Virus record (IMG/VR): IMGVR_UViG_3300045988_163663
Length of the DNA stretch: 64,000 nucleotides
Reading direction: 5' to 3' (one strand)
Source: a virus
Shown: positions 1 to 64,000 of the stretch, one piece after another
Numbering within the stretch: the first letter of the stretch is position 1
Layout: each line of letters starts with the position of its first letter
The notes under the pieces: generated by a model
What the model saw: only the letters and a program-made list of their open reading frames with translations
Told to the model about the DNA's origin: nothing
The model's database searches: none
Program-made: the position numbers and the translations under genes

Positions 1-116
1 GGCTACAAGAAGATGGAACAATTAAAGGGCCTAATACATTTCAAGGACTATTTAATTATGTAAATAATTAGGATAATGAAACTTTAAAAAAGGCTAAAAC
101 GTATATAAATGATGTC

Positions 117-551
117 ATGAATAATTATCATGCTCCAATAGCTGGTGAAAATACATTAGGTATAGTTATGGGCGGCGGAACTGGTATCGGTATTGATGAA
201 AATGGTAGATTATATGCAACAGGAGAAATTATAGCTGATGCAAATATCTTATGGTCTAAGATAGTAGAAAAACCTACTACTTTAGAAGCAATCAGCAAAG
301 ATGCAATGTGTCGAGCTATTATAAATAGTTTACCATCTAGCAGCTAGTCAGGTAATTATGCTGATTTATTAAATAAACCAGATTTATCTAAATATGCTTT
401 AAAAACAGACATATCTGAATACACATTACCAACTGCCTCAACTTCTACTCTTGGCGGCGTAAAAATAGATAATAGTACAATTGGTATTAGTGATGGATTT
501 ATTTATGTAAAAAATACTAATTCAGCCGTTTGGACTAAATGGACAGGATAA
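117..551 (+). CDS. small tail-fibre-like structural protein, TAG read through at 345-347
   Basis: ORF 117-347 continues in the same frame across TAG to TAA at 549-551. The downstream part is Ser/Thr/Gly-rich. Confidence 0.5.
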
Positions 552-696
552 GTTTGAAATTGATAACTTATTTATTATAATCTTTACTCTTTTGAAAATA
601 GATGATTGAGAAAGATATTTAATATAGGGAAATAAATATCTTGAACTATTTTCAAGATATTTATTTCCCTATATTTTTGTTTAAGGAGGAAATATA

Positions 697-1689
697 ATGG
701 CAAATAATACATTCCAAGGCCGTATGATTTAGAAGCATGATACAAAAGCTAATTGGGATAAAGCAACTAATTTTGTCCCCTTAAAAGGCGAAATTATTAT
801 ATATGATGATTTAAAGAAAATAAAAATAGGTGATGGAGCTACTAAAGTAGGAAATCTGGTTTTTATTAATGACTTAGATACTATAAATGGAAAATATTTA
901 CCTCTTGCTGGCGGTACTATGACTGGTAATATTAATATTAATAATAAAACAATTACTAATTTAAAAACTCCAACAGCCGATACAGAAGCCGCAAATAAAA
1001 AATATGTAGATGACTAGGTTGCCGCTAATGACCATATAGTAAATAGATTTACATTTACTGCAACAGCAGGTTAGTCTACATTTACTATTCCATTTGATTT
1101 TGAAGACAGTAGCGCCCTTACTCTCTATTATAATGGTGTAATGATGAAAGAAACAGACAACTACACAGTATCTGGTAAAGTAATTACTCTTGCTGGATTC
1201 ACAGCCGAAGCTGGTGATTATCTTACTGTAATGGGTATAGAAGGAGCTGCAGCAATTGATTTTGGCAAAGAGGCCGAAGATGCAATTAAACAAATACAAG
1301 CTATAAAAACTTCATCAATTAATGAAATAAATACTGTGAAAGAAAAGACTCTTAAAGAAATTAATGATTTAGTTGCCACATTACCATCAAATACTTCTAA
1401 TATTATGTTTTTAAATAAAACAAACACAATGGCTACTGATAGTAAGATTACTATGTATAGTACTTATACTCCTTCAGCAAACGAAGATGTTGCTACAAAA
1501 AAATACGTTGATGATAGTAAACCTTCAATAGTTGGCACATCTACTACTTTTCCAATCTATATTGGCTCATCTACTCCCGCGTCAGGCACAGCACCTTTAT
1601 TATGGATTGACACATCTTCATCTGGTACTTTTAAATATCGTACATCTAAAACTGGAACTTGGACTATCGTACCTGTTGCTTGGAGTTAA
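697..1689 (+). CDS. tail fibre protein with three in-frame TAG codons
   Basis: RBS 'aaggagg' then ATG 697. Same frame as ORF 1141-1689 across TAGs at ~730, 1015 and 1072. Contains the phage-fibre-type motif 'LPLAGGTMTGNI' and the C-terminal module 'LLWIDTSSSGTFKYRTS..W'. Confidence 0.6.
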
Positions 1690-1704
1690 TAAGGAGAATA
1701 ATAG

Positions 1705-2691
1705 ATGGAAATAAAAAACAATGAAAAATTATTAGATTCTTTAGTTATAAATAAAGTTCCATCTAGGAAAATTTATAATCAAATGGTGAAACAAGGAAAA
1801 GTAAACAATGATGAAATATACATTATAAATAAAGAAGATGACCTTCCTTATAAATATTCTTTCATTGCCCAAGAAGGAGATACAACATTTACTTTTCCTT
1901 TTATTGTTGAAAATCCTGAAGATTTAAATATATTTTTTAATGGTATATTAATGACTAAAAATATAAACTATATAATTCAAGATAATAAAATTAAGTTATT
2001 AGATTTTGCGGCATCAGCTAATGATAGTATTATCGTTCTTAATATTCGAGGAATAGAACCAGAAGACTATTTATTAGATGTGATAAATGACTTATAGATT
2101 ATAAAAAATGATACTATTTAGGCTATTGATAATAAAATAAGTGAATTACCAAAAGATATGAATGAAATGCTATTAACCTCAAAAAATAATATTATGACAA
2201 CAGGCAAAATAACTATGAATAGTACTTATACACCATCTAATACTGGAGACTTAACCGATAAAAAATATGTTGATTAGCAGATATAGAATAACAAAATTTC
2301 TAAAGTAAGTCAATTAACTAATGATGCTGGATATCTTACGTCTCATTTAGTTAGATCAGTAAATGGAATGACTGGCGATATAAGTATCAAAGGAGCTTAT
2401 GTTGGAAGTTATATAGGAAATAATGCTTTAACAAAAACTCTTAATTTTAATTTTGAACCTGCTTATTTGATGCTGTTTATGGTGCAAACTAATGCTGGTA
2501 CTGCTCAAAATTATATGTGTGGCATACAAGGAATGAAATACCCATTTCCTAATAATAATGGCACTTATGTTAGTTTTACTTGGAATTCAAAATCAGTTAT
2601 TATTACTGCTGCTAGTAGTTATTATACTAGTATATTCAATAATAAGGGTTATACTTATTATTATATAGCAATTCCTAAATTTAATAATTAA
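1705..2691 (+). CDS. tail-fibre-associated structural protein with about five in-frame TAG codons
   Basis: ORF 1705-2097 and ORF 2368-2691 share one frame and are linked across TAG codons. TAA stop at 2689-2691. Confidence 0.5.
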
Positions 2692-2704
2692 AGGAGGTTT
2701 TTAA

Positions 2705-3145
2705 ATGTCTAAACCTAAACTTATAGAATAGATTGAAAATGCAGGCGGTGTATTTATTGCCACTAAAGATATTACCACTTATAAAGAAATTAAAGATGCT
2801 TGGGACAGCGGTAAAGATATTATTGTAGTATTTAATTCAGATATTTATATGCTAACTGAAATCCCTATTGGTAGTAATACTATAAAATTTTATTATAGAG
2901 ATTTCCGTAATAGAGGTTATTCTACTACGAGTACTAAATATCTAACCTTAACTTCTACTAATACTTGGTCTCCGTCAGTAACAGTCGAATAGCCAACAGG
3001 AATAACTACACCAATGACTTGGAATGGCACTACTCCAATTACTGCATCAGTAAAATATTTACGCCCAATATTAATATCTACTGCAGAACCAACAGCATCA
3101 GATGGTAATATCGGCGATATTTGGATACAATATGATGCAAATTAA
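2705..3145 (+). CDS. hypothetical structural protein, recoded
   Basis: RBS 'aaggagg' then ATG 2705. Frame is continuous through two TAG codons to TAA. Confidence 0.45.
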
Positions 3146-3158
3146 GGAGTTGATTTAA

Positions 3159-5975
3159 TTGGCAAAACAAACAATTACTTTAACTAATTTATTAACTAAT
3201 CCAAGTTTTGAAAAGACAGGTTGGACTGCTAATTCAGCTTGCTCAGTTAGTTACGCCGCCTCTCCTAAACATTCCGGCTCTTATAGCTTAAAAGTCACAT
3301 CTACATCAAGTTCTGAATCATTAATTGTAACCTCTGACACATATGCTATCAGAAAAAATCATATATATTATATAAGTGTTTATTTTTATGAAACTGTTAA
3401 TGTATGTTCTGAAATGCAATGTTATTGGCCAATAGCAGAACCATTAGTAGGTTTTGCTAAAGTAGATAAAACTAAATTAAATCAATGGCAGCGATTAAGT
3501 TGGCGTAATGTTCGTGCTAATTGGAATGACAACTAGAAAGCTCAATTCAGATTCGATTTTGAAGGTATGGCTTCAAATACAATGGCTTATATTGATGACG
3601 CTATGCTTATTGATTTAACAGCCGCATTTGGTGCTGGAAATGAACCTACACAAGAATGGTGTGATACTAATATTGAATATTTTGCTGGTAATAAAACAAT
3701 TCAATATGAAGCTCCTAATAAATATGATTTAACTGTTACAACTCCTACAAAAATATAGACTGGTGATATATTAAATTGTCCTTATAGTGGATCTATGAAA
3801 TCAGTAATTCTTCCAAAAGGGTAGTATAAATTAGAATGCTGGGGCGCCTAGGGCGGCAGCTATAATACTACTTACCCAGGTGGTAAAGGTGGATATAGTG
3901 CTGGCACATTAATACTTTCAAATAAAACAATATTTTATTTGTATGTTGGTGGCCAAGGAAACAACTATAACAGCGACTCCTCAAAAGGAACTACTACTGG
4001 AGGTTTTAATGGCGGCGGAGCAGTTACTTCATATGGTTATCGTAGCTCTGGTGGCGGTGGTACTGATATTCGCTTAAAAAATGACTCATTATATGCAAGG
4101 GTGATTGTTGCTGGAGGCGGAGGCGGTGCTTCACCAAATTATATAACCTGGCCGGGTGGTGTCGGAGGAGGCATAACTGGCTTTGGATACAATAATTCTA
4201 ATACTACTAATACATAGTACGGAGGAGTTGGTGGTACTTAGACTGCTGGTGGCGCAAAAGGTACAGCGACTAATTATGGAGCTAATGGTTCTTTTGGGCA
4301 AGGTGGAAACTATGATACTGCAAACAGTTCTTACACTTCTTATGGCTCAGGAGGTGGTGGCGGTTGGTATGGTGGAGGCAGTGCCGCAGGCATTGGTGGC
4401 GGCGGCTCCGGTTATATGTACACTTCTAGCTCCGCCTCTTATTATCCTTCTGGCTGTTTATTGAATTCATCTTATTATTTAACTAATGCTACTACATTAG
4501 CAGGTAATGCTGCATTTACTTCTCCAACAGGTACAAGTGAGACAGGACATGCCGGCAATGGTTATATACGCATAACAGTTATAGAAGCCAGTTCTGGAAA
4601 TACTTTAGTAAAAATCCCCTAGACTCTTCCTTCTACTTATAGCCCCATTGAATATTTACAATTCACAGGCACTCAATATATTGATACGGGAGCTATTGTT
4701 GATAGCAATACTGGTTTTGATATTACATTTGAAGTATTAAATGGTCAATCAGGTAGTCCATATTATAATTTATTCGGCGTGCGTGGCAATGATTCCTCTG
4801 GCGGCACAGGTGAGACGTAGAATTTCTTCTGCATTGATACAATAGCTGTTGATAGTAATAGTGGCACTGAATTTAAATATGGCTCTACTGTATATAATTC
4901 TGGTATTAAAGATACATCAAAAATTAATATTAAGTTATTAAATAAAGTATATACTAAACCTGATGGCTCTACTATTACTGTAACTGGTACTATTACTACT
5001 GGTTTATCAATGTACATTGGTTGTATTAATAAAGCAGGAACAGCATACGGTAATAAAGCCAGTATGAAATTATATAGATTTAAAATATATAATGATTCTA
5101 CTCTTACTCATGATTTTATCCCAGTATAGCGAGTTTCAGATAAAGTATTAGGCTTATATGATTTAAAAACATCAGTATTTAAAACAAATGCTGCTTCTGA
5201 TATTCCATTTACAAGTAATTTAATGAATGACTCTTCTAGCCTTGCTTACTTTAATGGCGATAGCTTATAGAGCCAAGGTAATGAATCTCTTACTGTAACT
5301 AATAATAATGTTACATTATCTAATGAACAAACTCATTTTGGTAAAAATTCATTAAAATTTGATGGCAGTTCTTCTTATATGTATATGCCATTCCCTTCTA
5401 CATATACAGGAGATATTACTCTTGAAGGATGGTTTTATTAGACTTCTAATAATAATACTACTTATCCTACGCCTTTTACTTTAATATCGACCAAAGGCCG
5501 CGGAATGTATATGCATAGAACAACAGCCAGTCAAACTTTTGTTGCAGCGACTGCTTCTAACAACTGGCCTGGTCTGTCTGGAGGTACAACTACACTTAAT
5601 ACCTGGATTCATATAGCAATGTGTTTATCTGGGACAACAACTTATTGTTTCATTGATGGAAAATTAAAAGGTACTCTAACAAACACTAATACCAGCTATG
5701 TGGGATTAACATTAGGTACATTAGCTGAAAGTGCGAGTAATAATCATGCATCAGGATATTATTATAAAGGATATATTGCCGAATTAAAAATAACTAAAGG
5801 ATGTAAATGGACTAAAGATTTTACATTGCCTGCTACTCTGTATAGTACCACTAAAGATTCTAAACCTTGGAAAGAACCAGTACAAATGTTTGTAAAAACT
5901 AATGCTAATATTTGGAAACCGATAAAAGGCATATGGGCAAAAACTGCGGCGAACACATGGAGTTAGGCATTATAA
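3159..5975 (+). CDS. large Gly-rich tail fibre or receptor-binding protein with a ConA/LamG-like lectin domain, about 13 in-frame TAG codons
   Basis: ORFs 3159-3536, 3567-3758, 3939-4217, 4416-4622 and 5505-5966 are all in frame 0 and joined only by TAG codons. TAA stop at 5973-5975. The C-terminal 'TWIHIAMCLSG..YKGYIAELKITKG' looks like a LamG jelly-roll. Start is TTG or nearby. Confidence 0.55.
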
Positions 5976-5978
5976 AAT

Positions 5979-6015
5979 TTGATTTTCAAAAAATTATTTT
6001 ATATAATATAAATGT
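5979..6015 (+). promoter_or_regulatory. sigma70-like phage promoter, TTGATT-N17-TATAAT
   Basis: One member of a repeated motif (at least 17 copies) of the form TTGAAA-N17-TATAAT followed by ATATATAG, placed upstream of genes. Confidence 0.45.
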
Positions 6016-6143
6016 AAATAAGAAATAAATTTTTTATTTACAGCATTTAACTCACCCCTTTCTTAAATAGGACATAATAATTTAATTATTATGTCCTATT
6101 TTTTATTTATATAAGAAAGAAAAAGTAAGAAGGAGGTATACAA

Positions 6144-6578
6144 ATGGCTTCAAAAACTAGTACAAATTTAAATACTCTTTCTATCAATCAAATCCCTACT
6201 AGAGCTTTATATAGACAATTAAAAGAAGATAATTAGTTAAATGAAGAACAATCATTAGTAATTATAGACGACGATTTTGAATAGCGTCTTTATAAAGATG
6301 AAGTAAATGTAATGAGCGCCAATGGTAAAATTTAGATGGCGAATAACTATGTCCCAATATCTGGTAATGATATAGCTACTAAAAATTATGTGGATAATAG
6401 TAATCCAACTATAACTCCTACTGTTGGTTTTACGTCAAACAATTAGATTTATATTGGGACTACTGCTCCTTCTTCTTCATCTGCTCTTATTTGGGTAGAT
6501 ATTTCTAGTAATGGAGTATTGAAATATCGTACATCATCAAGCGATTCATGGAAACCTATTCCAGTTGCTTGGGGCTAA
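6144..6578 (+). CDS. small fibre protein sharing the C-terminal module, three TAG codons
   Basis: RBS 'aggagg' then ATG 6144. Ends 'LIWVDISSNGVLKYRTSSSDSWKPIPVAWG', paralogous to the C-termini of 697-1689 and 26178-27050. Confidence 0.45.
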
Positions 6579-6602
6579 TAAAAAATAAAAGGAGAAAGAA
6601 AA

Positions 6603-6926
6603 ATGAAAATTATAATTAATAATTTAGTTGATAAACCTATTGATAATTTAAGTTTTGTTACAGAACGAGCTTACCATCCTGCTTCTGATGATTAGCCAAA
6701 AACAATGTTTTTATTAGAAGCAGCTAGAGGAAATGTGCCATCTAATTATAATATAAAACAAATGTTAGGATGGCTTATGGAATTAGATAAAATTGAAAAT
6801 ATAAAAGTTTATAATGATAATGAAGAACTAATTTGGGAATATAATAATTATAATAAAGTAGATGAAATTTTTATTATGAATGATAATGGAGTCCAAATTA
6901 ATAATTTAATTATTCATTTTGTTTAA
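6603..6926 (+). CDS. hypothetical protein, one TAG
   Basis: ATG 6603 is in frame with ORF 6705-6926 across a TAG codon. Confidence 0.4.
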
Positions 6927-6931
6927 CATCA

Positions 6932-6979
6932 ATGCTTGAAAAGCTTGTTCTTAAAATTTGCTTTTCAAGCATTTTTTTT
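6932..6979 (+). terminator. rho-independent terminator
   Basis: 13-bp stem 'atgcttgaaaagc'/'gcttttcaagcat' followed by a T-run. Confidence 0.6.
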
Positions 6980-7000
6980 ATATAATAATAAAAAAAGAAG

Positions 7001-9004
7001 GTGAATAAAATAAATTAGTATAGAGATGGACCTACTAGAGCATTTTGGCCTACAGTTTTTGATGGATTTGAATTAGAAATTCATTTAGTAGACCATTGCA
7101 ACCTACAATGCAATAATTGTAATCATTTTTCTCCTTTAGCTTCTCCATTTTTTATTACTTACGAAGATTTTCAAAATTAGCTAAAATTAGTAAAAAAAAC
7201 TTTGCCTTCTATTAAAGTTTTAATGCTATTAGGGGGAGAACCATTTTTACATCCTAATTTAATAGAATTATGTTAGATAGCTAGAAATATTCTCCCAGAG
7301 ATAGAAATAAAGATATTAACTAATGGTATAATTTTAAATAATTATGATACAAAAAAATTAAAAAAATTAGAAGAATTAAATATACATATAAGTATTTCTA
7401 AATATCCTAATCAAGACTACAAAGATTTTAGCAATAATAAAAATATCTCATATTTAAATGATAGATTTTTCTTTGATTAGACATTGGTTGACCCTTTAGG
7501 TAAACAAGATAATAAAACTCGTATATATAGTTGTCCAAATAGGATTCCTTGCTTTACATTAAAAGATTTTAAAATATATTTTTGTCAGTTTGGGGCACAC
7601 ATAAATAATTTCTGTAATTATTTTTTTAAACAAATTCCATTAATAGAAAATAAAGATTTTATAAAACTAACAGAAAAAACAAATTTACAAGATTTATAGA
7701 ATTTAAAACTATGTGAAAAAAATATATGTAAATATTGTCGGTCAGGAGATGTGGTTGATTGGGATCAATCAACTAAAACTTATGATGAATATACTAAAAC
7801 AGAAAAAGAATTATTCTTAACAAATTATAATGAATATTATAAAAAATTTGTTGATTTTTCTAATTTTTAGGATTTTTCAAAAAAGAAATCTTGGAATAAC
7901 GTTGATTCTTGGTATGCTCCTGATAGAATGAGAACATTTAGAAAACGCAACGAAGGAAAAATTGATATTATAATTCCTTTTTATACAATAAATAAAATAT
8001 ATTTTTAGAAATGTTTAGATTCTGTCTTTAAACAAAGTATTATTAATGATTGTGTAATCTATTTAATTAGTGATAATTCTCCAGATAAAAAATATGTATA
8101 TGAATTTTATAAAACTTATAATAACATATACAATATAATATTATTAGACACTTAGAAAACTAAATCAGGCCCTGCGTCAGCTAGGACTTTAGGAATTAAT
8201 AATAGCTTCAATAAGTATTTTTTCTGTTTAGATAGTGATGATTATTTTTATGATAATAAGGCTTTAGAAAATTTATACATATATGCTGAAAATAACAATT
8301 ATGGAATTGTAAATGGATAGACCTATGATAAAAATGAGTTTATCCATGATGCTCATAGTTATTTATATAATAAAGAATTTTTTATAAAAAATAATTTTTC
8401 TTATGGCAAATTTATTTATAATGAAGATAGATTTTTATCATTATAGATTTTTGATTTTTATAATGGTGCAATTCCCTTCTTAGAACAGCCTATTTACGTA
8501 TATAATAGAAATAATGAAAGTATGGGTAAAGATATTAATTTTTTATATATGACAATAAATGAATTAATTGTTTTTACTTATTTTTATAGACAATATTTAA
8601 CAAATAAAAAATATGAAAATAATCATTTTATTTTCGAACATATTTTTAATAAAATTATTGTAAATTTATCTATAATAGAAGAAGTAACTGATAAAGACAA
8701 AGAATATCTAAAAGACATAAAACAAGAAGAAGCAATTTGTTTAAGTCTTATTTGTTTAATTTTAATTAATGATAAAATTTTGTTTAATAAGTTACCATTG
8801 TTTTATAAAGATTTATTAAATAAAATAAAAAAAGAAGATTTTATTAAATTAAATAATACTGTATTATTTAATTTAAATAGTCTATTTAATAAAGGAAATC
8901 ATATACTTGATAATAATAAACTAATTAAACAATTTATTAACAAAGAGTATATTGATTTTATAAAATACGAGGAGGAAAAATATGGCAATTAGTTCAAACT
9001 CTAA
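7001..9004 (+). CDS. radical SAM domain fused to a GT2 glycosyltransferase, multiple TAG codons, non-ATG start
   Basis: Frame 2 is continuous through ORFs 7484-7699 and 8522-8992. The N-terminal 'VDHCNLQCNNCNH' fits the CX3CX2C radical-SAM motif. The central 'IIIPFYTINKIYF..SDNSPD..CLDSDDYF' is GT2 (DxD). There is no in-frame ATG, so the start is GTG 7001 or similar and is uncertain. Confidence 0.5.
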
Positions 9005-9497
9005 AATAAATTGGAGTGATATTTAGACTATTTTTACTAATTTAAATACCGCAAGAAAAAAATTTTTCCCTAGTTAGAGTGATTTTCAAGCGACTCCTGG
9101 AGGATAGTCAACACAAGCTATGGCTCAATTAGCTCAGAATTTAAATAAGTATATAGAATCTTTTTCCAGCAGCAGTTATGTTGGTTCAAGAGCAAATATT
9201 AGTGAAAATCCTCCTTCAGCAGGAGATTTAATTAGTCCTATTATTTTTAATAGATTTACCACTACAATTAGAAGTATAAATGATACCTGTGCTCATGATG
9301 CAAGTTATAACGCTAGTCATAGAGGTAGTGGATATAATAGTAGTTGGGATAGTTCTGATTATGGAGCAGGATGGGATACTTCTTATAATTCTTCTCATGA
9401 TGGTTCAGGTTATCATTCTTCCTATTGGTCAGGAGTTAATCAAACCTGGTGTTCATCTCATGGATGCTCTAGTCATTACGGTTCTAGGCACACTTAA
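8982..9497 (+). CDS. Ser/Gly/Tyr-rich small protein, possible modification substrate, three TAG codons
   Basis: RBS 'aggagg' then ATG 8982. The C-terminal half is 'SGYNSSWDSSDYGAGWDTSYNSSHDGSGYHSSYWSG..CSSHGCSSHYGSRHT'. Sits between two radical-SAM genes. Confidence 0.4.
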
Positions 9498-9517
9498 CAT
9501 TTAAAGGAGAAAAAGGA

Positions 9518-12321: not shown

Positions 12322-12571
12322 TTTAGATAATGTTTTAAAAGAAATTACAAATAATATTATAAAAGAAAATAAGGGGTATATGGATTTATTATTTGTTATA
12401 TATAATAATATGGTTACTTTAGAAGAACCAAATCCAGAAGTCAATAAAAAAATAATTTATACCTTAGCTAATTTATTATAGAATTAGGATTTACGATTAA
12501 AAGACTTAAATATAGATTATTCAAAAGAACTAAATAAATTAACAAATTAGCTATATTCTATAGGAGAATAA
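12314..12571 (+). CDS. hypothetical small protein, recoded
   Basis: ATG 12314 overlaps the upstream stop. Frame continues through three TAG codons to TAA. Confidence 0.3.
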
Positions 12572-12573
12572 AA

Positions 12574-13422: not shown

Positions 13423-13432
13423 AATATAAGTA

Positions 13433-44610: not shown

Positions 44611-44616
44611 TATAAA

Positions 44617-51290: not shown

Positions 51291-51308
51291 GAGAAGATTA
51301 TATTTAAA

Positions 51309-51608: not shown

Positions 51609-51663
51609 TTTGCATTTCAAAAAATATTTTAATATAATATAAATAAAGAAAGGGACATAAATT

Positions 51664-53538: not shown

Positions 53539-53542
53539 AAAT

Positions 53543-54540
53543 ATGACTGTAATTTATTGCGTAATATGTTTTCTTCTTGGTGCTGGTCTTTTATATTTAG
53601 GACTGCGTAATAAATTAAAAGCCACAATTGAATTAGATACTCAAACAAGAGAAGAAAACGCAAAAATAATTGAAGAAAGTCAAAGACTTCTTCAAAAACA
53701 AAATTAGTTAAATGAAGAAATATCTAATTTAAATAATGAATATACTTCTCTAATTAAAGATATAAATTATTTAAAAGATAAAAAGCAAACTCTTGATGAT
53801 AGTTATGAACAAGCAAATAAAAATGCTGAATTATATTATCAAAAAGCAAATGATTTAGCTACAGAAAAATTTGCTTAGTCTGCAGAACGTATGGCTCAAG
53901 AATACCAATAGGCAGAAGATAACTATCAACAAGAATATTTAAAAGTAATTGAAGAAACCGCTAAACAATATGAATTAACTATTGATAAAAAATAGAAAGA
54001 ATTAAAATTAGTTCTTACTAAATTAGCTGATGCAAAAGCAAAACAAGATGCAATTGTTGAAGCTAATAAACGTGCGGAAGAAGTAAAACAAAAAGAATAG
54101 TTTTATAAACTTAATTTAAGTGAAATTGATATTGAAGAAATTAAAAAAATTCGTTCAATTATTCCTTATTTAAGAAGTGCTGAACCAATTAATAAAGTAA
54201 TTTGGAAAGTATATTATGAAAAACCTTATAGTGATTTAATAGGCAGAGTAATTGGTTAGAAAATTCGTACAGGTATTTATAAAATTACTAATATAGAAAG
54301 TTAGAAATGCTATATTGGTTAGGCAGTTAATATAGCTGACCGTTGGAAACAACATATAAAACGTGGAGTAGGTGCTGAAGCACCAACCCGTAATAAGCTT
54401 TATCCGGCAATGTATGAATTAGGTCCGGAACAATTTACTTTTGAAGTTCTTGAAGATTGTGATAAATCCCTATTGGATAGTCGAGAAGATTATTGGCAGG
54501 AATTTTATCAAGCAAAAGAATTTGGTTATAGTATTAAATA
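53543..54540 (+). CDS. TM and coiled-coil protein with a C-terminal GIY-YIG nuclease domain, recoded
   Basis: N-terminal TM 'VIYCVICFLLGAGLLYLGL'. About 200 aa of coiled coil. Then 'IRTGIYKITNIES*KCYIG*AVNIADRWKQH'. Single frame, 8 TAG codons. Confidence 0.45.
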
Positions 54541-54552
54541 AGGAGAAAAAAA

Positions 54553-54834
54553 ATGTATAGAATTATTGATAAACGTGGTTCTGGTAAAACAGGTAGATTA
54601 TTTTTAATTGCTAAAGATACAGGAGCTACTATTGTATGTTCTAATCCTGCAATGATGTAGGAAAAAGCCCTATATTATGGATTTAAAGATTTAAATTTTA
54701 TGTCTTATGCTGATTATGTTAATTGTTATAAAGGACGCGGCTATAGTCAAAAGTTTTTAATTGATGAAATTGAATTACTTGTTAAATGCCTTGGAAATGT
54801 AATTGGCTATTCTTTATCGGAGGATGAAACCTAA
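54553..54834 (+). CDS. hypothetical protein, one TAG
   Basis: RBS 'aaggag' then ATG. 'RGSGKTGRLFLIAKDTGA'. Confidence 0.4.
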
Positions 54835-55478
54835 TGGATATTGTAAGTAATGTATGTATTTATGATTTAGATAAGTCAATTATTGCGGCGGGTTATCCTA
54901 TGTCAGTAGACATTGAAAGCCAATAGGACAGAGAATTAAATGAAAATGATTTTAAACGTTGTGATACTCTTATTAATGCTTGTGTAAAAGATAATCAAGC
55001 ACACGGATAGTTTTTGACAGGCATTCGAGTTAATTTTGATTTAACTTGTTCTAATAAAATGTGGGTTGAAGCAGAACGTTATAGATTCCTTGAATTTGTA
55101 AGTTCTCAATCTACTATGCATCGTATTACTAAATTTAATCTTGATGAAGCATATAATAAATATGTTGATGATAGAATTATCAAGATTATGAAAGAAAAAG
55201 TTGATTATTATAATACTCAAGTAGCATTAAAAGAAAAATATATTAAAGAAAATAAGCCAGTTGAAGCAACAAGAATATCTGAATTGTTAAAGAAATTATA
55301 TCTTGAAATTCTTTATTCTAATCCTGCTGGATTTACTTTAACGGCACGCATGACTACTAATTATCGTTGTCTAAGAAATATCTATAAGCAGCGTAAGAAT
55401 CATCGTCTTCCTGAGTGGCGTGAATTTTGTAAGTGGATTGAAACACTTCCTTACGCCCAAGAGTTATTGATTAATTAA
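54834..55478 (+). CDS. hypothetical protein, recoded
   Basis: ATG overlaps the upstream stop. In frame with ORF 55014-55478 across two TAG codons. Confidence 0.4.
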
Positions 55479-55549
55479 TTACTTTGAAAATTTATATAAA
55501 ATATGATATAATATTTATATAAAAGAGTAGAAAGTGAGATTAAATAAAA

Positions 55550-55912
55550 ATGAATAGAAAACAAGCATTTATTGATTTTGTAAATGACTTGATTAAAAAT
55601 TGTGAACATCCAGTAGGAATGAGCGAAGATGCTGAATTCTATTGGAATTACCTTAAAAATAGTAATGATAATGAAATTGAGAATCCTTTATTTACTGAAA
55701 ATGGAAAACGGCTTTTGATTTGTCTTCAAGAGCATCCAGAAAAAGAAGCATGGAAGGCACGCGAAGTAGCTGAAGAACTTGGCATTAGTTCTCGTAGTGT
55801 TTCTGGCGGAATGCGTAAATTGGTAAATGATGGATTTGTAGAAAAATTGAATGATAATCCAGTTGTTTATGCTATTACTAATAAAGGAAAAGAAATTACA
55901 ATTGAAGAATAA
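55550..55912 (+). CDS. small winged-helix protein
   Basis: 'EAWKAREVAEELGISSRSVSGGMRKLVNDGFVEK'. Confidence 0.45.
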   Translation: MNRKQAFIDFVNDLIKNCEHPVGMSEDAEFYWNYLKNSNDNEIENPLFTENGKRLLICLQEHPEKEAWKAREVAEELGISSRSVSGGMRKLVNDGFVEKLNDNPVVYAITNKGKEITIEE

Positions 55913-55931
55913 TTAAGGAGAAAAATATTAA

Positions 55932-56879
55932 ATGAAATTTGTTAATGAAACACATATTGAAGGTTATCTATATGAGCATAATCTGGAAATGAAGGAAAGC
56001 GGTCCTAATTCAAAGAATCCTGGCACTCCTTTTATTAGCGGCACTATTAGTATTGTTACTGATAATGCTTTAACAAATGTTCTGTAGGTTCATTTTACTT
56101 ATGTAACTGAAACTACCTCTAAAGGTAAGACTAATGCTACATTTACTACTCTTCGTAAGATTATTGATGGTGAATATAATACAGTAATGGGCGATGGAGT
56201 TGAAAATGCAACTCGTATTCGTGTTGATTCTACTGTTGGTCTTAATGAGTTTTATGCTGAACGTGATGGTAAGGAAGAACTTGTAAGTATTAAGCGTAAT
56301 GAAGGTGGATTTGTTCATGTTATGGTGAATGAACCATTTAATGAGAAGGAAATTGAACGTTGCAAGTTTAAGACTACAATGCTTATTACTAAAGCCGTCC
56401 GTACTGAAGCTAATCCCGAAAAGGAAACTCCTGAAAAGGTAACTATTAGTGGTTATGCTTTTGATTTCCGTAAAGCTCTTCTGCCTGTTTCTTATACAGT
56501 CCTTAATGAAGGCGGTATGAATTATTTTGAAGGCCTTGAAGCTTCTGAAAAGAATCCTGTTCTCACAGAAGTTTGGGGTAAGCAGGTTTCTAGAACTGTT
56601 GTAAAAAAGGTTACTAAGGAAAGTTCTTGGGGCGATGCTGAAGTTCAAGAATTTAAGAATACTTATAAGGATTATGTAATTACTGGTTCTCAGAAAGAGC
56701 CTTTCGTATTTGATATGGAAGATACTTATACTTCTGAGGAACTTACTAAGGCAATTGCTGATCGTGAGACTTATCTTGCTACTATTAAGCAGCGTAGAGA
56801 TGAATATCTTGCTACTAAGAATAATAGTGGTGCAAAACCAGCTACAGCTTCTAATGGAAATGCAGGATTTAACTTCTAA
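55932..56879 (+). CDS. putative phage ssDNA-binding or recombination-associated protein, one TAG
   Basis: 316 aa. In frame with ORF 56187-56879. Sits upstream of the AAA_24-type ATPase, as in Sak4-type recombination modules. Confidence 0.35.
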
Positions 56880-57030
56880 TAAATAGCCAAATAATGATGA
56901 CCTCATTAGAGGTCATCGAGCTAAACTAAATATATATGATGACAGTTTATTAAATCGAGAAGAAATAAATGAAATTTTAAATAAATATTTTGAACCATTT
57001 GATTTAGAGAAAAAAGGAGAAAATTAAATA

Positions 57031-58014
57031 ATGGCTATTGACCTTTTAAAAATTTAGCCTCATAAGGTTAGTAAAGATTTAGGCGGATATATTACTTTTA
57101 TTTATGGTAAACCTAAGACTGGTAAGACTACTTTAGCTACTCAAATGCCTAAGTCTCTTTTGTTAGCATTCGAACAAGGTTATAACTGCTTGCCTGGCGT
57201 AATGGCGGCGGATATTACTTCTTGGACTGAAATGAAGCAGGTTTATCGTGATCTTAAGCGTCCAGAAGTAAAGGAAGCTTATGATGCAATTATTGTTGAT
57301 ACTATTGATGAAGCAGCAAAATATTGTGAAAAATATATTTGTAATCAGAATGGTATTGAATCTTTGGGTGATCTTGGTTATGGTAAGGGTTGGATTAAAT
57401 TTAAGGATGAATTTAATGAAGTGTTCCGTGGCTTAACTCGTCTTGGTTATGCTGTTTTCTTCTTAGGCCATGAGAAGGAACAAACTATTAATCGTCCTGA
57501 TGGGACTGAAGCAAATATTATTAGACCCAGTTTATCTCAATCTACTCGAACTGTTATTACTGGTATGGCTGATATTTATGGCTATGCTCATCAAAAGGGT
57601 CCAGGCCAAATGTCAGTATTGACTCTTCGTTCTGGCACTGATGCTATTGACTGTGGTGGCCGTTTTAAATATATTGAGCCTGAAATTCCTATGAGTTATG
57701 AAAACCTCGTAAATGCTATTCATGCTGCTATTGACAAGGAAGCTGAAGAAACTAAGGGTAAATTTGTCACTGATGAAAAAATGACAGTTGCTCCTGAAGC
57801 TCCTACTTATGATTATGAGGGTCTTATGAATGAGTTCCAGCAAATTGCTAGTGAACTTATGGCAAAGAATTCTGAATATTATGCACCACGGGTTACTAAG
57901 ATTGTTGAAAAGTATCTTGGTAAGGGTAAGAAGATTTCTGAAACCTCTATTGATCAAGCTGAATTTGTAAGCCTTATTATTGATGATATTAAGGATGAAC
58001 TTATGAATAAATAA
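57031..58014 (+). CDS. AAA_24/Sak4-like RecA-family ATPase, one TAG
   Basis: Walker A 'IYGKPKTGKTTLA'. 'AIIVDTIDE' Walker B. Confidence 0.55.
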
Positions 58015-58098
58015 TTATCAATCCAGAGGAAACTCTGGGTTGATTTTTTATCTATTTTTTAGTATAATATATATAGAAATTATAATGTTTGGTGGTGA

Positions 58099-58620
58099 GA
58101 ACCAATAGCACATAATGTAAAGTGTCTATATTGTGGGAAAACTTTTGATAGAGATAAATATCCATTTGTTCAAGTAAGTTCTAAACGCTATGCACATCCT
58201 GAATGTGCAGAACGTAAAGAAGAAGTAATGAATAAAGAAGATTTAGATAAAATGAAATTAGAATAGTATATCAATCAATTATTTCATACTGATTATGTAG
58301 ATCCTCGTATTCAAAAACAAATTAAAAATTATATTAAAGAATATAATTTTACTTATAGTGGAATTTTAAAATCATTAGTTTATTTCTATGAAGTAAAACA
58401 AAATCCAGTAGAGAAATCAAACGATGGTATTGGTATAGTGCCTTGGGTATATAAGCAAGCATTTAATTACTATTATGCTATTTGGTTAGCTCAACAAAAA
58501 AATACTAATAAAACAGTTGAGAATTATATTCCAAAAGAAACAGAAATAATAATACCACGGCCTAAGCCTAAACCTTATCGGAAACATCTGTTTTCTTTTT
58601 TGGATGACAAGGAGGATTAA
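58099..58620 (+). CDS. zinc-finger protein, start unresolved
   Basis: Frame open from 58099. 'KCLYCGKTFDRDKY..YAHPECAE'. No canonical in-frame start near the promoter. Confidence 0.3.
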
Positions 58621-60152
58621 TGGCTTCAAAATATATTGATACAACAGCCATTATTTAGACAATTGGTTGTGTATATAACAATCCTAAACTATTAGATTAT
58701 ACTGACAAATATATTATCACTGAAGATGATTTTGATAATGATTTTCATAAGATAGTATATGGATCAATATATAAATTACATGAACTCGGTGCTGAAAGTA
58801 TTACTTTAGATGCTATTGGAGATTTTTTAAGCACTCGACCAAAATATCAAGCTATTTATGAAGCACAAAAAGGAAATAAATGGATTCAAGAAGCCAGTTT
58901 ACATAGTGATAATACCACATTTGATTATTACTATGGGCGTCTAAAAAAAATGTCATTGCTTAGAGCCTATGATAGATATGGTTTTGATGTAAGCGATATT
59001 TATGATCCTGACAATATTTTAGACACTAAAAAACGACAGCTTCAAGAAGAATGGTTAGATAATGCTTCATTAGAAAAAATTGCTCAACGTATTGATGATA
59101 AGATTGAAGAAATTAAATATCAATACGTAGCTGAAATGGAAAATGATGCTTACTAGGCCGGCAATAATATTGATGAATTAATTGACAATCTTTTGGAACA
59201 TCCTGAAGTTGGTGCTCCATTATTTGGTCCATTAATTAATACAGTTACTCGTGGAGCAAGATTAAATAAATTTTATCTACGTTCAGCAGCAACTGGTGTA
59301 GGTAAGTCTCGTAGTATGATCGCTGACGCTTGTTATCTTTCTTGTGAAAAGTATTATCAGGAAGGAATTGGATGGATCAAATCTGGTGGCGGAGGAGAAC
59401 CTGTTTTATTTATTTCTACTGAGTAGACTAAAGATGAAATCCAAACTATGATGTTGGCATTTTTATCTAATGTAAATGAAGACCATATTTTAAATGGTAA
59501 ATATGTTGGTGATGAATTAGCACGAGTAAGAGAAGCTGCACAGTATCTTCGTAAGGCTAATTTATTTGTTGTTGAAATGCCAGATTTTTCTTTGCGTGAT
59601 GTAGAAAATGTTATTAAGAAAAATATCCGCGATCATGGAGTTAAATATGTATTCCATGATTATATTCACACAAGTATGAAAATTCTTGAAGAAATTAGTA
59701 AGCGTAGTGGTGGTGTAAAACTAAGAGAAGATAATATTCTTTTTATGCTTTCTACTCGTTTGAAAGATATTTGTAATCAATATGGTATTTTTATTATGTC
59801 TGCTACTCAGTTAAATGCTGATTATCAATATAGTGAGACGCCAGACTAGAATGTTTTACGTGGATCAAAAGCAATTGCTGATAAAATTGATGTAGGTATG
59901 CTTCTTCTTCAAGCTCGTGATAATGATTATCAATCATTAGAAAAAATACTTGAAACAAATACGTTTGAACGTCCAACAATAAAATTATCAGTATATAAAA
60001 ATCGTCGAGGAAAATATAAAGGAATTTATCTTTGGTGTAAAGCTGATTTAGGCTGTTGTCGTATTATTCCAATCTTCTGTACTGATTGGAGTTATGAATT
60101 GGTAGATATGGAAAATGTAAAAATTAGAATTGCTGAAGATAGTGCTTTTTAA
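58620..60152 (+). CDS. DnaB-like replicative helicase, four TAG codons
   Basis: 'LINTVTRGARLNKFYLRSAATGVGKSRSMIADACYL' Walker A. 'LFVVEMPD' and 'IFIMSATQLN' RecA-fold motifs. ORFs 58950.., 59193.., 59448.. and 59898-60152 are in frame. Confidence 0.6.
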
Positions 60153-60779
60153 AAATCATGAATAAAATAAACAAATGTTATATTATACGTATAGATAATA
60201 AAGACGTTCCTCGGCCAGTATAGTTCTTAAATTATCAGAATGAAAATATAAGTGTCATTTTTATTAATCCTTTTAATTATACTGGTAGTTGCATGAAACG
60301 ATAGGATATAGTATATTGTGATAAACATTTTTATGATGATAAAGCTGGACAATTTATTATAAAAAATATCATTAAACCATTAGCAATGAAAAATAATTTT
60401 ATTGTATTTTAAGGAGATTAAATTATGTTTGAAAAAAAGATTATGAATGGAACTATTGAATATAAAATGCCGAAAGAAATGGCAGCAATGTATTTAAAGA
60501 CTGCTAAGGGTGACTTTGCAAAGAAACATCCAAAGGAATACCTTATTAAAGTAGTTAATGAAGAATTTGGTGTTAAAGGCACTTGCGTTAATGTAATTAC
60601 ATTTTAATGAAAGATTTAATTATTTATAAAAATGTAATTACCGGTAAATTTGTATACGGATATAAAATTGAAGTAAAAGCAGAAGATTATCCTCTAAAAA
60701 TAGATCATGGAAATATTAATCTTGATTTTACTCTTGATTATGTTAATAAAGATTTATTTAATGAATTAATTATGCCAAA

Positions 60780-61883
60780 ATGATTAATTATGATAAAATA
60801 GAAATAAAAAATAATTTAACTTTAGATAATATTTTTGAATTACTAAATATTTGGGGCGGCAATCCTGAATATAGTGAATTCGGTATTCTTTCTGAAACCA
60901 TTTGTCATAATGAACCAGGAGTAGGAAGTAAAAAACTTTATTACTATTCAAATAGTCAATTATTTAAATGCTATACTGGCTGTGATAATACCTTTGATAT
61001 ATTTGAATTAGTAATTAAAGTTGCTAATATTCAATCTAATAAAGAATATGATTTAAATGATGCAGTTAGATGGATAGCTAATTATTTTGGTATTGCTGGT
61101 TCTGTAGAACAAGAGGCTGAAGATTTAGGTTTAGAAGATTGGAAATTTTTAGCTAATTATGATAAAAATAATCCTGAAGAAAATTTAAATTCTAAAGTTG
61201 AATTAAAAATTTATGATAGCCAAATTTTAAGTAGATTTAACTATCGAGTAAAAATAACTCCATGGTTAAAAGAAGGAATAAGTCAAGAAGCAATAGATCA
61301 AGCAATAATTGGTTATTACCCTGGCGGCGATGCAATTACAATTCCTCATTTTAATATAGATGGAGATTTTATAGGCCTAAGAGGAAGAGTATTAGGGAAA
61401 GAAGAAGCATTATTATATGGTAAATATAGACCACTTAAAATTAATAAAATTCTTTATTCCCATCCTCTTGGTATGAATTTATATAATTTAAATAATAGTA
61501 AAGCAAATATAAGTAGATTAGGAAAAGCAATAATATTTGAAGGTGAAAAATCTACTCTACAATATCAAAGTTATTTTGGTTTTGAGAATGATATAACAGT
61601 AGCTTGTTGCGGCAGTAGTGTATCAGCGCAGCAAATGAAGTTATTAGAACAAGTTGGTGCCAAAGATATTATTATTGCTTTTGATAGACAGTTTCAAAAA
61701 ATAGGTGATGAAGAATTTTATCATTTAAAGAATAACTTATTAAAAATAAAAGCTAAATATGGAAATTATTTTAATATATCTTTTATTTTTGATAAGAATA
61801 TGCTTACTAATTATAAGGATAGTCCAACTGATGAAGGGCCGGAATTATTTCTTAAATTATATAAAGACCGAATAATTATATAA
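60780..61883 (+). CDS. DNA primase (DnaG-like, TOPRIM)
   Basis: Zn-binding 'CHNEPGVGSKKLYYYSNSQLFKCYTGC'. TOPRIM 'KAIIFEGEKS' and 'IIIAFDRQ'. Confidence 0.6.
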   Translation: MINYDKIEIKNNLTLDNIFELLNIWGGNPEYSEFGILSETICHNEPGVGSKKLYYYSNSQLFKCYTGCDNTFDIFELVIKVANIQSNKEYDLNDAVRWIANYFGIAGSVEQEAEDLGLEDWKFLANYDKNNPEENLNSKVELKIYDSQILSRFNYRVKITPWLKEGISQEAIDQAIIGYYPGGDAITIPHFNIDGDFIGLRGRVLGKEEALLYGKYRPLKINKILYSHPLGMNLYNLNNSKANISRLGKAIIFEGEKSTLQYQSYFGFENDITVACCGSSVSAQQMKLLEQVGAKDIIIAFDRQFQKIGDEEFYHLKNNLLKIKAKYGNYFNISFIFDKNMLTNYKDSPTDEGPELFLKLYKDRIII

Positions 61884-61894
61884 GGAGTAAGTAT

Positions 61895-63637
61895 ATGAAT
61901 TATAAATTAATTAATGATACACAAAAAACTCCATTAGAAACAATAATGAATAACCGTGGGATTAAGACTGAAGATATTTAGCATTTTCTTAATCCCACGC
62001 AATCCGATATATATCCTAATAAATTATTAAATAACATGGAATAGGGAATTAAACTATTATTAAAACATATTAAATAGAATAATAAAATTTTTATTTAGGT
62101 AGATGCTGATTGTGATGGTTATACATCATCAGCGTTATTAATTAATTATTTATATAATTTATTTCCTTATTATGTATCTAATAATGTTTATTATAGAGTC
62201 CATACGCAGAAAACTCATGGTATTATTTTAGATACTATTCCAGAAGATACTAAGTTAGTAATAATCCCAGATGCTGGAAGTAATTAGTATAATGAACATA
62301 AAGTGCTTTATGATAAAGGTATTGATATATTAATTTTAGACCATCACGAAGTAGATAAAATATCTCCTTATGCTTGTACGATTAATAATCAATTAGACAA
62401 TTACCCTAATAAAGCACTATCAGGTGTTGCAATAGTATATAAATTTTGTAATGCTATTGATGAAATTATTAATACTAATTATTCAAACAAGTATTTAGAT
62501 TTAGTGGCTCTTGGGTTAATCGGAGATATGGTAGATAGTAGACCTTATGAAACTCGTTATTTTATCAATCAAGGTTTAAAAAATCCTCAAAATCCCTATA
62601 TTAAAGGTATGATGGAAAAAAATAAATTCAAATTAAAAGAAACTTTAACTCCTATGGGTGTTGCTTTTTATATTGCTCCACTTATTAATGCAGTCACACG
62701 TGTTGGAGAAATTGATGAACGACAAGTTGTATTTTAGAGTATGTTAGATTTTCTTGCTTATGATTTAGTTCCATCAACCAAAAGAGGATGTAAAGGATAG
62801 GCAGAAACTATTGTAGAACAAGCATGCCGAGTAAGTGGTAATGTAAAAACGCGATAGACTAAGATCCGTGATACTAATGTTGAAATAATTGAGAAATTAA
62901 TCGAAGAACAAGGTTTATTAAATGATTAGATTTTAGTTGTTTAGTTGGAGAAAAAGTATGAGGTAAATAAAAATTTAACTGGATTAATTGCAAATGAATT
63001 TGCAAATAGATTTTAGAAGCCAACTCTTATACTTAATGAAGTAATTGAAAATGGAATAAAATACTGGGAAGGATCAGGTCGTGGCTATGAGTTTTTTGAG
63101 CCTATAAAAGATTTTAAGGCTTATCTTAACTCTACTGGATATTTTGAATTTGCAGAAGGTCATTAGGGAGCTTTTGGTGCGAAAATCGCAGATAGCAATA
63201 TAAGAAAATTTATAACAGATACAAATAGTAAATTGTATGGTTATGATGGTTAGCCAGTTTATTTAGCCGATTATATTTTTGATAGTAATAATATTGATAT
63301 AAATACTATATTAGAAATACCAGAATTTGAACCTTTATGGGGATAGAATTTTAAAGAGCCATATATAGTTATTAAAAATTTAAAACTTACAAATAATAAT
63401 GTAATTTATTATCCTAAAGAGACTACTGGAACATTAAAGATTAAATTACCAAATGATTTAGATTTAATTAAATTTAATGTCAATCAAGAAGAATATAATA
63501 ATTTACATAGTGATACAGGATGTATTATTATTGATATTATAGGTACTTGTAAAATAAATGAATTTTTAGGAAAAACTAATCCAGAAATTTTTATTACTGA
63601 TTATCATATTACTAAAAATGTAAAATATTATTTTTAA
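61895..63637 (+). CDS. RecJ-like DHH-family ssDNA exonuclease, about 12 TAG codons
   Basis: DHH motifs 'VDADCDGYTSSALL' and 'ILDHHE'. DHHA1-like C-terminus. ORF 62303-62737 is in frame. Confidence 0.55.
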
Positions 63638-63654
63638 TAGATAGAGAGAAAAAT

Positions 63655-64000
63655 ATGAAAACAAAAATTATTATAATTATTAGTATTCTTTTAATTTTAA
63701 CTATTAATGTAAGTGCAATAGCTGTTGAATATACTCCTTTAAAAGAAACCAATAATTATTGGGAACTTATCAATTTAATTGAAGAATATACATTGAAAAA
63801 AGAAGAAGTGCATTTAGTGGCTGATAAAGCTCGAATGATTGGTTATACAGAAAATAGTCAACCAATTATAAGTGCTAAAAGTCAGTGGTATTTTTATAAT
63901 GAAATTATTAAATTTTATCAAAATCAATTAGATAAAATTAATAAAGAATTAGATGACCTTGAATACAAGGACGCTACTCTTATTTGGGAATATATGAAAA
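63655..64000 (+). CDS. secreted or membrane protein, 3'-truncated at the window edge
   Basis: ATG 63655. N-terminal hydrophobic 'IIIIISILLILTINVSAIA'. Confidence 0.35.
   Translation, partial: MKTKIIIIISILLILTINVSAIAVEYTPLKETNNYWELINLIEEYTLKKEEVHLVADKARMIGYTENSQPIISAKSQWYFYNEIIKFYQNQLDKINKELDDLEYKDATLIWEYMK

Follow-up and report, generated by a model that had tools for sequence, protein, structure and literature searches.

Reading of the amber codon TAG as glutamine (Gln), with the help of suppressor tRNAs, is an established feature of several groups of phages. Borges et al. described it in low-GC (guanine plus cytosine) gut phages, in which structural, lysis and endonuclease genes are recoded and replication genes variably so, and modelled the TAG-free genes as being translated by the naive host and the TAG genes after the suppressor has been made (bioRxiv 10.1101/2021.08.26.457843). 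In that survey suppressor tRNAs were detected in only 40% of the TAG-recoded genomes, some of them being probably non-canonical, and the accessory code-change genes, for release factor 2 (RF2) and aminoacyl-tRNA synthetases (aaRS), were found in only some of the members with genetic code 15 (bioRxiv 10.1101/2021.08.26.457843). For crAss-like phages, TAG-to-Gln decoding has been proven by proteomics (PMC9523058). Here we analyse a stretch of 64,000 nucleotides from the IMG/VR virus record IMGVR_UViG_3300045988_163663 (the window), for which a first-pass annotation, made from the letters alone, had proposed amber recoding. We find that TAG is a sense codon in more than half of its genes, that its reading as Gln is supported by codon-level comparison with relatives, and that the window carries a gene for a tRNA with the anticodon CUA. 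The phage is thus a sound and well-documented example of recoding that is already known, from a lineage without an annotated relative in GenBank; the phenomenon, the Gln identity and the gating model have all been published.

The window has a GC content of 29%, with nearly all genes on the + strand, and is 100% identical to record positions 6073-70072 of the ENA contig ERZ28621461 OBRE15-1_SAMN03283284 scaffold_6 (188,486 bp). A scaffold of 189,494 bp from the Peruvian gut sample SRR1761717 shows 98.3% identity to the window; the survey of Borges et al. covered the same Peruvian cohort (bioRxiv 10.1101/2021.08.26.457843). Three independent contigs measure 188.5-189.5 kb each, and the sequence of one 188,474-bp relative in IMG/VR is a circular permutation relative to the window, from which the genome is taken to be ~188 kb long and circular or terminally redundant. 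DNA of relatives came from IMG/VR; the fetched loci, which are relatives or overlapping contigs and carry L-numbers (L002, L014, L065 and so on), total 1.37 Mb and cover ~72 kb of this 188-kb genome. Searches of GenBank phages by blastn with gene g26 gave no match, and by tblastn with the GyrA-like g55 nothing above 41% amino-acid identity, so the phage has no annotated close relative there.

In its features the phage resembles the large Firmicutes and Bacteroidetes phage clades Jade, Sapphire and Agate, with a genome well above 100 kb, low GC, TAG as a sense codon, a CUA tRNA, and scattered structural and lysis modules. It differs from them by a structurally aberrant suppressor tRNA that is missed by standard finders and is linked to a GIY-YIG endonuclease, and an RF2/aaRS 'code-change module' was not found in the ~72 kb scanned. 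The crAss-like phages also combine TAG-to-Gln decoding, suppressor tRNAs and recoded late or structural genes, but they are podoviruses of ~100 kb that infect Bacteroidetes and have replication and RNA polymerase genes of their own, whereas this phage has ~188 kb, a Pol III alpha replicase encoded just beyond the window, a GyrA/B-like topoisomerase, SPbeta-like YorF and YorH proteins and an SLH protein. Its size, its Pol III alpha and the identity of g55 to GenBank phages (at most 41%) place it outside the crAss-like phages, whose markers were not searched singly. Lak megaphages are alike in TAG recoding, suppressor tRNAs and gut origin; their genomes exceed 540 kb, their hosts are Prevotella and some of them carry RF2 (bioRxiv 10.1101/2021.08.26.457843), and a genome of ~188 kb, against more than 500 kb, does not fit among them. 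The human-gut phage phAss-1 ('Phassvirus') likewise has TAG in 41 open reading frames (ORFs) and suppressor tRNA genes, three in a genome of 136 kb (PMC10607447); relatedness to it was judged only through the g55 search, which gave no close GenBank relative.

When TAA and TGA alone are taken as stops, with four starts corrected to TTG or GTG and one spurious ORF dropped, 72 genes on the + strand tile ~89% of the window. In-frame TAGs, 161 altogether, occur in 40 of the 72, so that the earlier estimate of at least 35 interrupted genes was conservative. TAA ends 59 genes and TGA 12, and g73 runs past the end of the window (its TGA is seen in L002); all 71 complete genes therefore terminate at TAA or TGA. 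The example first given, with TAG at 345-347, is correct, and the ORF (3-551) has a second TAG at 69-71. A read-through control that is independent of the recoded gene set, on + strand standard-code ORFs of at least 80 codons, separates TAG from the other two stops:

ORFs terminated by TAG (n = 33): median read-through extension 140 codons; 27 gain at least 50 codons
ORFs terminated by TAA (n = 32): median read-through extension 12 codons; 4 gain at least 50 codons
ORFs terminated by TGA (n = 6): median read-through extension 7 codons; none gains 50 codons or more

For + strand ORFs of at least 100 codons, the coverage of 59.6% that the standard code gives rises to 86.8% when TAG is sense, but only to 60.5% when TGA is. 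In the two other frames of the recoded genes, the distance from a TAG (n = 769) to the next TAA or TGA has a median of 7 codons; for in-frame TAGs the median is 196. Retranslation keeps domains whole: 22 TAGs fall within single continuous Pfam matches, the domains being DHH, RecJ_OB, DnaB_C, PIN_4, PhoH, Amidase_2, GIY-YIG, Radical_SAM and Glycos_transf_2, and RecJ aligns end to end with PDB 8y30. Mismatch rates against relatives 3' of the first TAG are 0.194, 0.125 and 0.330 at codon positions 1, 2 and 3, a coding pattern like that of the TAG-free genes. The TAGs themselves are shared, 138 of the 144 aligned sites being TAG in at least one relative too. They are not concentrated at gene ends (8 observed in the last 12 codons, 7.2 expected under uniform positions), and hence there is no sign of TAG still acting as a stop. 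Stored gene calls of the public contigs already span TAG; RecJ, for example, is a single 580-aa gene there. Recoding in the window is confirmed by these results as real and far beyond chance.

TGA, in turn, is a genuine stop. The genes at 14325-14960, 13433-14365 and 43807-44265 all end in it, as had been claimed, and recoding of TGA is rejected, its read-through adding a median of 7 codons and ~1% of coverage; in the PhoH gene the profile match ends at position 199 of 205, shortly before the TGA. Two of the family names attached to these genes are less secure than their stops: the GT8 assignment of 14325-14960 is borderline, at 23.9 bits against a cut-off of 24.3, and the 'holin' at 43807-44265 is putative, its identity coming from position and hydrophobic segments only, with no family match. 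The YIG-TAG motifs were located correctly in three GIY-YIG genes, as YIG-TAG-S at 20426, YIG-TAG-ST at 48000 and YIG-TAG-A at 54320. Annotation under the standard code would break more than half of the genes (ORF coverage 60% versus 87%) and hides tail, lysis, DNA-modification and replication proteins. The recoded genes are the following:

3..6926, + strand: tail-fibre/baseplate module g1-g7, 28 TAGs, with PHROG tail-fibre and baseplate-wedge matches (g2, g5)
7001..16616, + strand: radical-SAM/glycosyltransferase 'modification' module g9-g18, 48 TAGs, with Pfam Radical_SAM and Glycos_transf_2 matches spanning TAGs
20369..21127, + strand: GIY-YIG homing endonuclease g23, 4 TAGs, with the suppressor tRNA immediately downstream
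22614..27050, + strand: large genes g26 (1182 aa, 15 TAGs) and g27 (2 TAGs), single ORFs only with TAG as sense
38138..39436, + strand: radical-SAM protein g42, 5 TAGs, with a domain match
41186..42442, + strand: PIN and PhoH ATPase g45, 4 TAGs, ending in TGA, with TAG 42212 at the glutamine of the Walker-B motif DEAQN
42494..44265, + strand: lysis pair of endolysin g46 (CHAP and Amidase_2, 2 TAGs) and membrane protein g47 (4 TAGs, TGA end)
47946..48635, + strand: GIY-YIG endonuclease g53, 3 TAGs, between the GyrB-like and GyrA-like genes
53543..54541, + strand: GIY-YIG endonuclease g60, 8 TAGs, with a domain match
54553..60412, + strand: TAG-bearing replication and recombination genes g61, g62, g64 (YorF-like), g65 (AAA_24), g66 (YorH-like), g67 (DnaB helicase, 4 TAGs) and g68
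61895..63637, + strand: RecJ-like exonuclease g72, 14 TAGs (58% of its Gln-type codons), with Pfam matches to DHH (1-124 of 125) and RecJ_OB (2-107 of 107)

Four genes of the modification module end in TGA, and its first gene, g9, starts at GTG 7001, which brings in the CxxxCxxC motif. Neither g26 nor g27 has a family match; their orthologues keep 10-16 TAGs, and the two are probably structural proteins. Within the span 54553-60412, g63 (55550-55912) is free of TAG.

TAG makes up 25% of the Gln-type codons overall and is unevenly spread among the genes (chi2 139.5, 45 degrees of freedom, p ~1e-11). Its share by gene group is as follows:

Tail-fibre/baseplate: 0.44
Radical-SAM/glycosyltransferase: 0.44
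Large structural proteins (probable) g26 and g27: 0.35
Lysis pair: 0.40
GIY-YIG endonucleases: 0.29
RecJ/DnaB/PhoH group: 0.30
GyrB-like, GyrA-like, ligase, RNase H, DUF5662 and Toprim: 0/72
HNH endonucleases: 0/6

The proposed recoding of structural, lysis, modification and some replication genes is borne out by these figures (module shares 0.30-0.44, with 4 TAGs in DnaB and 14 in RecJ), and so is the absence of TAG from the topoisomerase subunits, ligase, RNase H and primase, which together with DUF5662 make up the group with 0/72. For the homing endonucleases the claim held for the three GIY-YIG genes and failed for the two HNH genes, both TAG-free. For the vault-like island, said to be wholly free of TAG, it held for the most part, the exception being g31 (30235-30546) with 2 TAGs and conserved orthologues. 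The TAG-free genes are:

27159..37733, + strand: mostly TAG-free island with SLH, DUF2828/DUF7788 vWA, MVP-shoulder/Vault_3, NADAR, two metallophosphatases, AAA_33 kinase and SPFH/flotillin
45571..47749, + strand: RNase H g51 and GyrB-like g52 (orthologues without TAG: g51 27/28, g52 43/44)
48909..52872, + strand: GyrA-like g55, g56 and ATP-dependent ligase g57 (orthologues without TAG: g55 37/40, g57 17/17)
60780..61883, + strand: Toprim (primase-like) g71, with 1-2 TAGs in some relatives

The three remaining g55 orthologues have one TAG each. Orthologues of the topoisomerase, ligase and RNase H genes number 17-44 per gene, some of them from clearly recoded relatives, and any TAG at all occurs in just five. 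A division into TAG-free and recoded genes thus really exists and has been conserved. It fits early expression under the standard code followed by late recoded expression, a timing that we infer. A further island gene, g38 (35112-35771, AAA_33 kinase), has two ambiguous TAGs, one set before the likely start at Met 43 and the other 10 codons before the TAA; g38 may be a standard-code gene ending at TAG 35739.

In the model that we propose, TAA and TGA terminate, and TAG is decoded as Gln by the phage-encoded CUA tRNA. The recoding, the Gln identity, the tRNA gene and the conserved mosaic are shown by the data, while the charging of the tRNA and the order from early to late are the inferred parts. 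An unmodified standard-code host could translate the GyrA/GyrB-like topoisomerase, ligase, RNase H, Pol III alpha, the HNH endonucleases and most of the vault-like island. The TAG-bearing genes, namely those for tail-fibre and other structural proteins, radical-SAM proteins and glycosyltransferases, endolysin and putative holin, GIY-YIG endonucleases, DnaB, RecJ and PhoH, would give full-length protein only once the suppressor tRNA outcompetes release factor 1 (RF1). By way of the in-frame TAGs, late, lytic and selfish genes would in effect be gated at translation. Taken as a whole, this explanation, in which the window belongs to a human-gut tailed phage using genetic code 15, with its own CUA tRNA and with gating, is in our judgement very likely correct.

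The temporal part of this model meets some contrary evidence. TAG occurs in DnaB, RecJ, PhoH and the AAA_24 ATPase, so that the rule 'replication = early = TAG-free' has clear exceptions. The principal genes of the island, g30, g33 and g40 (DUF2828/DUF7788 vWA, MVP-shoulder/Vault_3 and SPFH/flotillin) lack TAG and prefer CAG over CAA by 63:3; their GC is 39-42%, and their GC at third codon positions (GC3) is near 30%, whereas it lies at 7-25%, and mostly at 10-20%, in the other genes with 100 codons or more. This composition suggests recent acquisition, and a foreign origin may explain the missing TAG in these genes as well as timing does. The alternative with most in its favour builds on such points: TAG would mean Gln with no temporal switch, the suppressor always being present and the TAG-free genes reflecting history (acquisition from a standard-code source) or constraint. 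The CAG-using outliers g30, g33 and g40 would be expected under it, as would the TAG-rich replication genes (14 in RecJ, 4 in DnaB) and the genes g43, g44 and g71, which are TAG-free in the window and have gained TAGs in relatives. It accounts poorly for the GyrB-like, GyrA-like, ligase and RNase H genes, which have normal phage composition (CAA-rich, GC3 12-17%) and yet are TAG-free or nearly so over 17-44 orthologues each. With a genome-wide TAG share of 0.25, the probability of 0/72 is ~1e-9, and Pol III alpha, just outside the window, adds 0/58 Gln-type codons in this genome. We consider a code without a switch unlikely, if still worth weighing, and prefer the gated model; on that model the phage adds a member documented at the codon level, with a conserved partition into TAG-free and recoded genes, to the large gut phages in which translation is gated by a stop-codon switch.

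We next consider which amino acid TAG encodes. A search of a large protein database with the g53 endonuclease gave at least 120 matches among those listed, all of them close metagenome relatives pre-translated with TAG as Q. The Q in those columns was set by the translation table and was therefore dropped as evidence; instead, orthologue alignments were made with TAG masked, and codons were then read from the relatives' DNA. Sixty-three TAG sites of the window have another codon in some relative, and at these the site-weighted partner is Gln with 30.4, ahead of Asn with 4.4 and Lys with 3.7. The commonest partner of TAG is CAA (34 sites), two mutations away, followed by AAA (10 sites); the one-step neighbours are rare, with TAT at 5 sites, TGG at 4, AAG at 3 and GAG, TCG and TTG at no more than 1. 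A fit of the replacement profile gives log-likelihoods of -153.6 for CAG and -154.6 for CAA, the next codon being AAA with -194.7, so that Gln codons lie ~40 log-likelihood units ahead of any other amino acid. In the reverse direction, a relative has TAG at 9.9% of the window's Gln sites and at no more than 1.0% of those of each other amino acid. Two conserved positions agree: for the Gln of the PhoH Walker-B motif DEAQN, TAG here, all 14 standard-code relatives have CAA or CAG and PDB 3b85 has Q, and at the YIG-TAG site of g53 one of the two Gln codons stands in 14 of 18 relatives. The PhoH site was the only informative one in alignments to PDB structures, the RecJ and DnaB TAGs lying in variable columns or opposite the Met of the bacterial 'SLEM', and the endolysin amidase domain gave no PDB match. 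In distant standard-code relatives, and this counts against the Gln reading, most TAG sites are variable columns, with Q at 3.6 and K at 3.4 of 14 sites. Since these columns vary, the Gln call rests mainly on close relatives and on the DEAQN and YIG-Q sites. The alignment of recoded positions, which the first-pass annotation had named as a check, thus upholds Gln: codon alignments, the likelihood gap and both conserved sites agree, and the assignment is supported at the level of sequence comparison.

A different meaning of TAG (Lys or pyrrolysine, Tyr, Trp, Glu, Leu or Ser) is very improbable. In its favour, AAA ranks second among the replacement codons, the variable sites of distant relatives hold Lys and Gln in about equal numbers, and ARAGORN tags the CUA tRNAs of relatives 'tRNA-Pyl', although this is merely its name for that anticodon. 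Lys, however, fits the replacement profile ~40 log-likelihood units worse than Gln, the two-step CAA dominates while single-step neighbours are scarce, and the conserved DEAQN and YIG-Q sites are Gln. Pyrrolysine decoding is dismissed on the same gap together with the lack of pyl genes among the Pfam matches.

Decoding of TAG as Gln calls attention to the tRNA genes. On the window ARAGORN reported four ordinary tRNAs and no suppressor, and the Rfam tRNA model added two, one of which is the CUA tRNA whose search had been recommended:

21133..21207, + strand: suppressor tRNA, anticodon CUA at 21166-21168 (Rfam tRNA 38.9 bits, gathering score 29)
18494..18631, + strand: phage tRNA-Gln(UUG) with a 66-nt insert at 18528-18593 (Rfam tRNA 50.4 bits, 69-nt gap)

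The suppressor, which we call type A, has the anticodon loop CUCUAAA, a U.C mismatch at 1:72, the discriminator G73 and an encoded CCA, and its minimum-free-energy fold is a cloverleaf. ARAGORN missed it on account of a non-canonical D loop (AGCAGCAA) and T loop (GGCAGCA); a suppressor tRNA missed by a standard finder supports the published suspicion that the detection rate of 40% is an underestimate. Other CUA tRNAs stand at exactly the same site in close relatives, namely type B (L065 18531-18605, L066 20183-20257, and L015), type B' (L077 5949-6026, and L078) and type C (L014 451-525). One locus thus holds at least four suppressor alleles, of which three show no sequence relationship; B' is set apart from B by compensatory changes at the pairs 7:66 and 27:43. 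The 1:72 pair is mismatched in every allele (A, U.C; B and B', U.U; C, G.A), and CCA is encoded in all of them, as are U35 and G73.

U35, G73 and a weak 1:72 pair are identity features for the glutaminyl-tRNA synthetase (GlnRS) of E. coli, and the E. coli suppressor supE is a tRNA-Gln with a CUA anticodon that inserts Gln at amber codons. The phage alleles are like supE in CUA, U35, G73 and the unpaired 1:72, a likeness by sequence, but they are not derived from the phage's own tRNA-Gln(UUG), which is part of its own Gln-decoding tRNA set. The alleles thus carry glutamine identity features, and they are most likely charged with Gln by the glutamine system of the host. What tells against the type A tRNA as the working suppressor is that it lacks the canonical D-loop GG and T-loop UUC and scores only 38.9 bits; it also has no sequence variants for covariation, an exact-match scan of IMG/VR with its anticodon arm returning the fetched contig only. 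It may work poorly, or a second suppressor may lie in the ~113 kb outside the stretch read. A scan for the release-factor GGQ motif found none in the window or in the 1.37 Mb of fetched loci (~72 kb of the 188-kb genome), and there was none among the Pfam matches.

The CUA gene also bears on the idea that the host itself reads TAG as Gln and the phage merely matches its code, which we give very little credence. The contigs of relatives have been binned into low-GC 'Mollicutes' and 'Clostridia' metagenome-assembled genomes (MAGs), which leaves some room for the idea; against it, the phage has its own CUA tRNA, and a conserved set of its genes avoids TAG entirely. We know of no bacterial lineage with TAG as Gln. 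TAG-recoded phages of this sort infect standard-code Firmicutes and Bacteroidetes (bioRxiv 10.1101/2021.08.26.457843). The view that the ORFs split by TAG are distinct genes, pseudogenes or products of faulty assembly has nothing that we found in its favour and is refuted by the data; separate genes, pseudogenes and chance continuity of frame were the outcomes by which the first-pass annotation would have been overturned. The same TAGs recur in relatives and in assemblies made independently (138 of 144 aligned sites), Pfam domains run unbroken over them, coding-type substitutions continue after them, and the long read-through extension is specific to TAG.

The more unusual material of the window is its tRNA region, with endonuclease-linked swapping of the suppressor and an insert in tRNA-Gln. 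The GIY-YIG gene g23 and the type A tRNA form a cassette of 917 nt (20287-21203) that is absent from close relatives. It stands where phages of 96-97% identity have one unrelated CUA tRNA (type B), and its right-hand junction lies at the 3' end of the tRNA. On the identical contig, g23 is an ENA gene call with a weak precomputed Pfam GIY-YIG match (L076 7833-8591). The swap at the suppressor site looks like allele replacement driven by an endonuclease. A GIY-YIG homing endonuclease whose own gene depends on TAG would have imported an aberrant CUA tRNA, displacing the canonical-looking allele of the sister phages, and the alleles would converge on an unpaired 1:72 and G73. The T4 endonuclease SegB is a GIY-YIG homing endonuclease in a tRNA gene cluster; g23 is similarly free-standing beside tRNA genes and tied to allele replacement in the tRNA region, but the tRNA that travels with it is a code-changing suppressor, which g23 itself (4 TAGs) needs. 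Two further endonuclease genes of the region, at 17537-18106 and 21525-21971, have no TAG, in contrast to the three recoded GIY-YIG genes; g21 has a Pfam HNH match, and g24 was called HNH from the motif HHxDGN...CPNCH alone.

The 66-nt insert sits exactly between U35 and G36 of tRNA-Gln(UUG), of which intact alleles exist in L065 and L066, and its deletion restores the loop CUUUGAC. It has a 7-bp acceptor-like stem (CGUAAAU/AUUUACG) and a T-arm-like hairpin (AAUAG-UUCAAAU-CUAUU), and ends in ACCA. The same insert is present in the second, 98.3%-identical assembly (L075 5979-6116); an exact-match scan of IMG/VR for it gave none. Its length is much below that of a group I intron, and it could be an intervening element or mark a disrupted gene. 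The insert could be cut out by tRNA end-processing enzymes and the halves re-joined by the phage ligase and kinase/phosphatase, and its removal would shift the balance between CAA/CAG and TAG decoding. That the code-switching apparatus as a whole is a mobile, fast-evolving cassette, with the tRNA-Gln insert included as a new kind of tRNA intervening element, is a joint proposal that we make as a speculation and hold to be quite improbable.

Other RNA elements lie nearby. A full-length ROOL RNA is located inside the tRNA cluster at 18804-19396 (Rfam RF03087, 324 bits, model positions 1-574), and a RAGATH-33 RNA, also full length, at 22145-22257 (135 bits). Directly upstream of the latter, a tRNA-like 3' element at 22061-22131 has the T arm GCGGG-UUCGAGU-CCCGC followed by CACCGGCACCA and matches the tmRNA model weakly (15.9 bits). 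Just upstream of g60, the small ORF g59 (53224-53490) has 45% GC compared with 29% for the genome. It recurs as a conserved ORF in 38 relatives, and when 53224-53490 was compared with Rfam as a candidate RNA element there was no match.

A search of bacterial genomes with the phage SPFH gene gave phage-like MAG contigs and yielded no host assignment. The contigs, 77-99% identical to the gene, sit in bacterial MAGs (L068; L070, CAMELE01; L071/L072, JALFQD01; L069, CAKQQY01) labelled 'uncultured Mollicutes', 'Clostridium sp.' and 'uncultured Clostridia', and are probably phage contigs mis-binned with low-GC genomes. Among the phages that share the GyrB-like gene (50-98% identity; L017-L064), some 20-kb neighbourhoods gain 10-40% in ORF coverage with TAG as sense and others gain nothing (e.g. 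L029, L025 and L046), which suggests that one GyrB-sharing clade holds both recoded and standard-code members.

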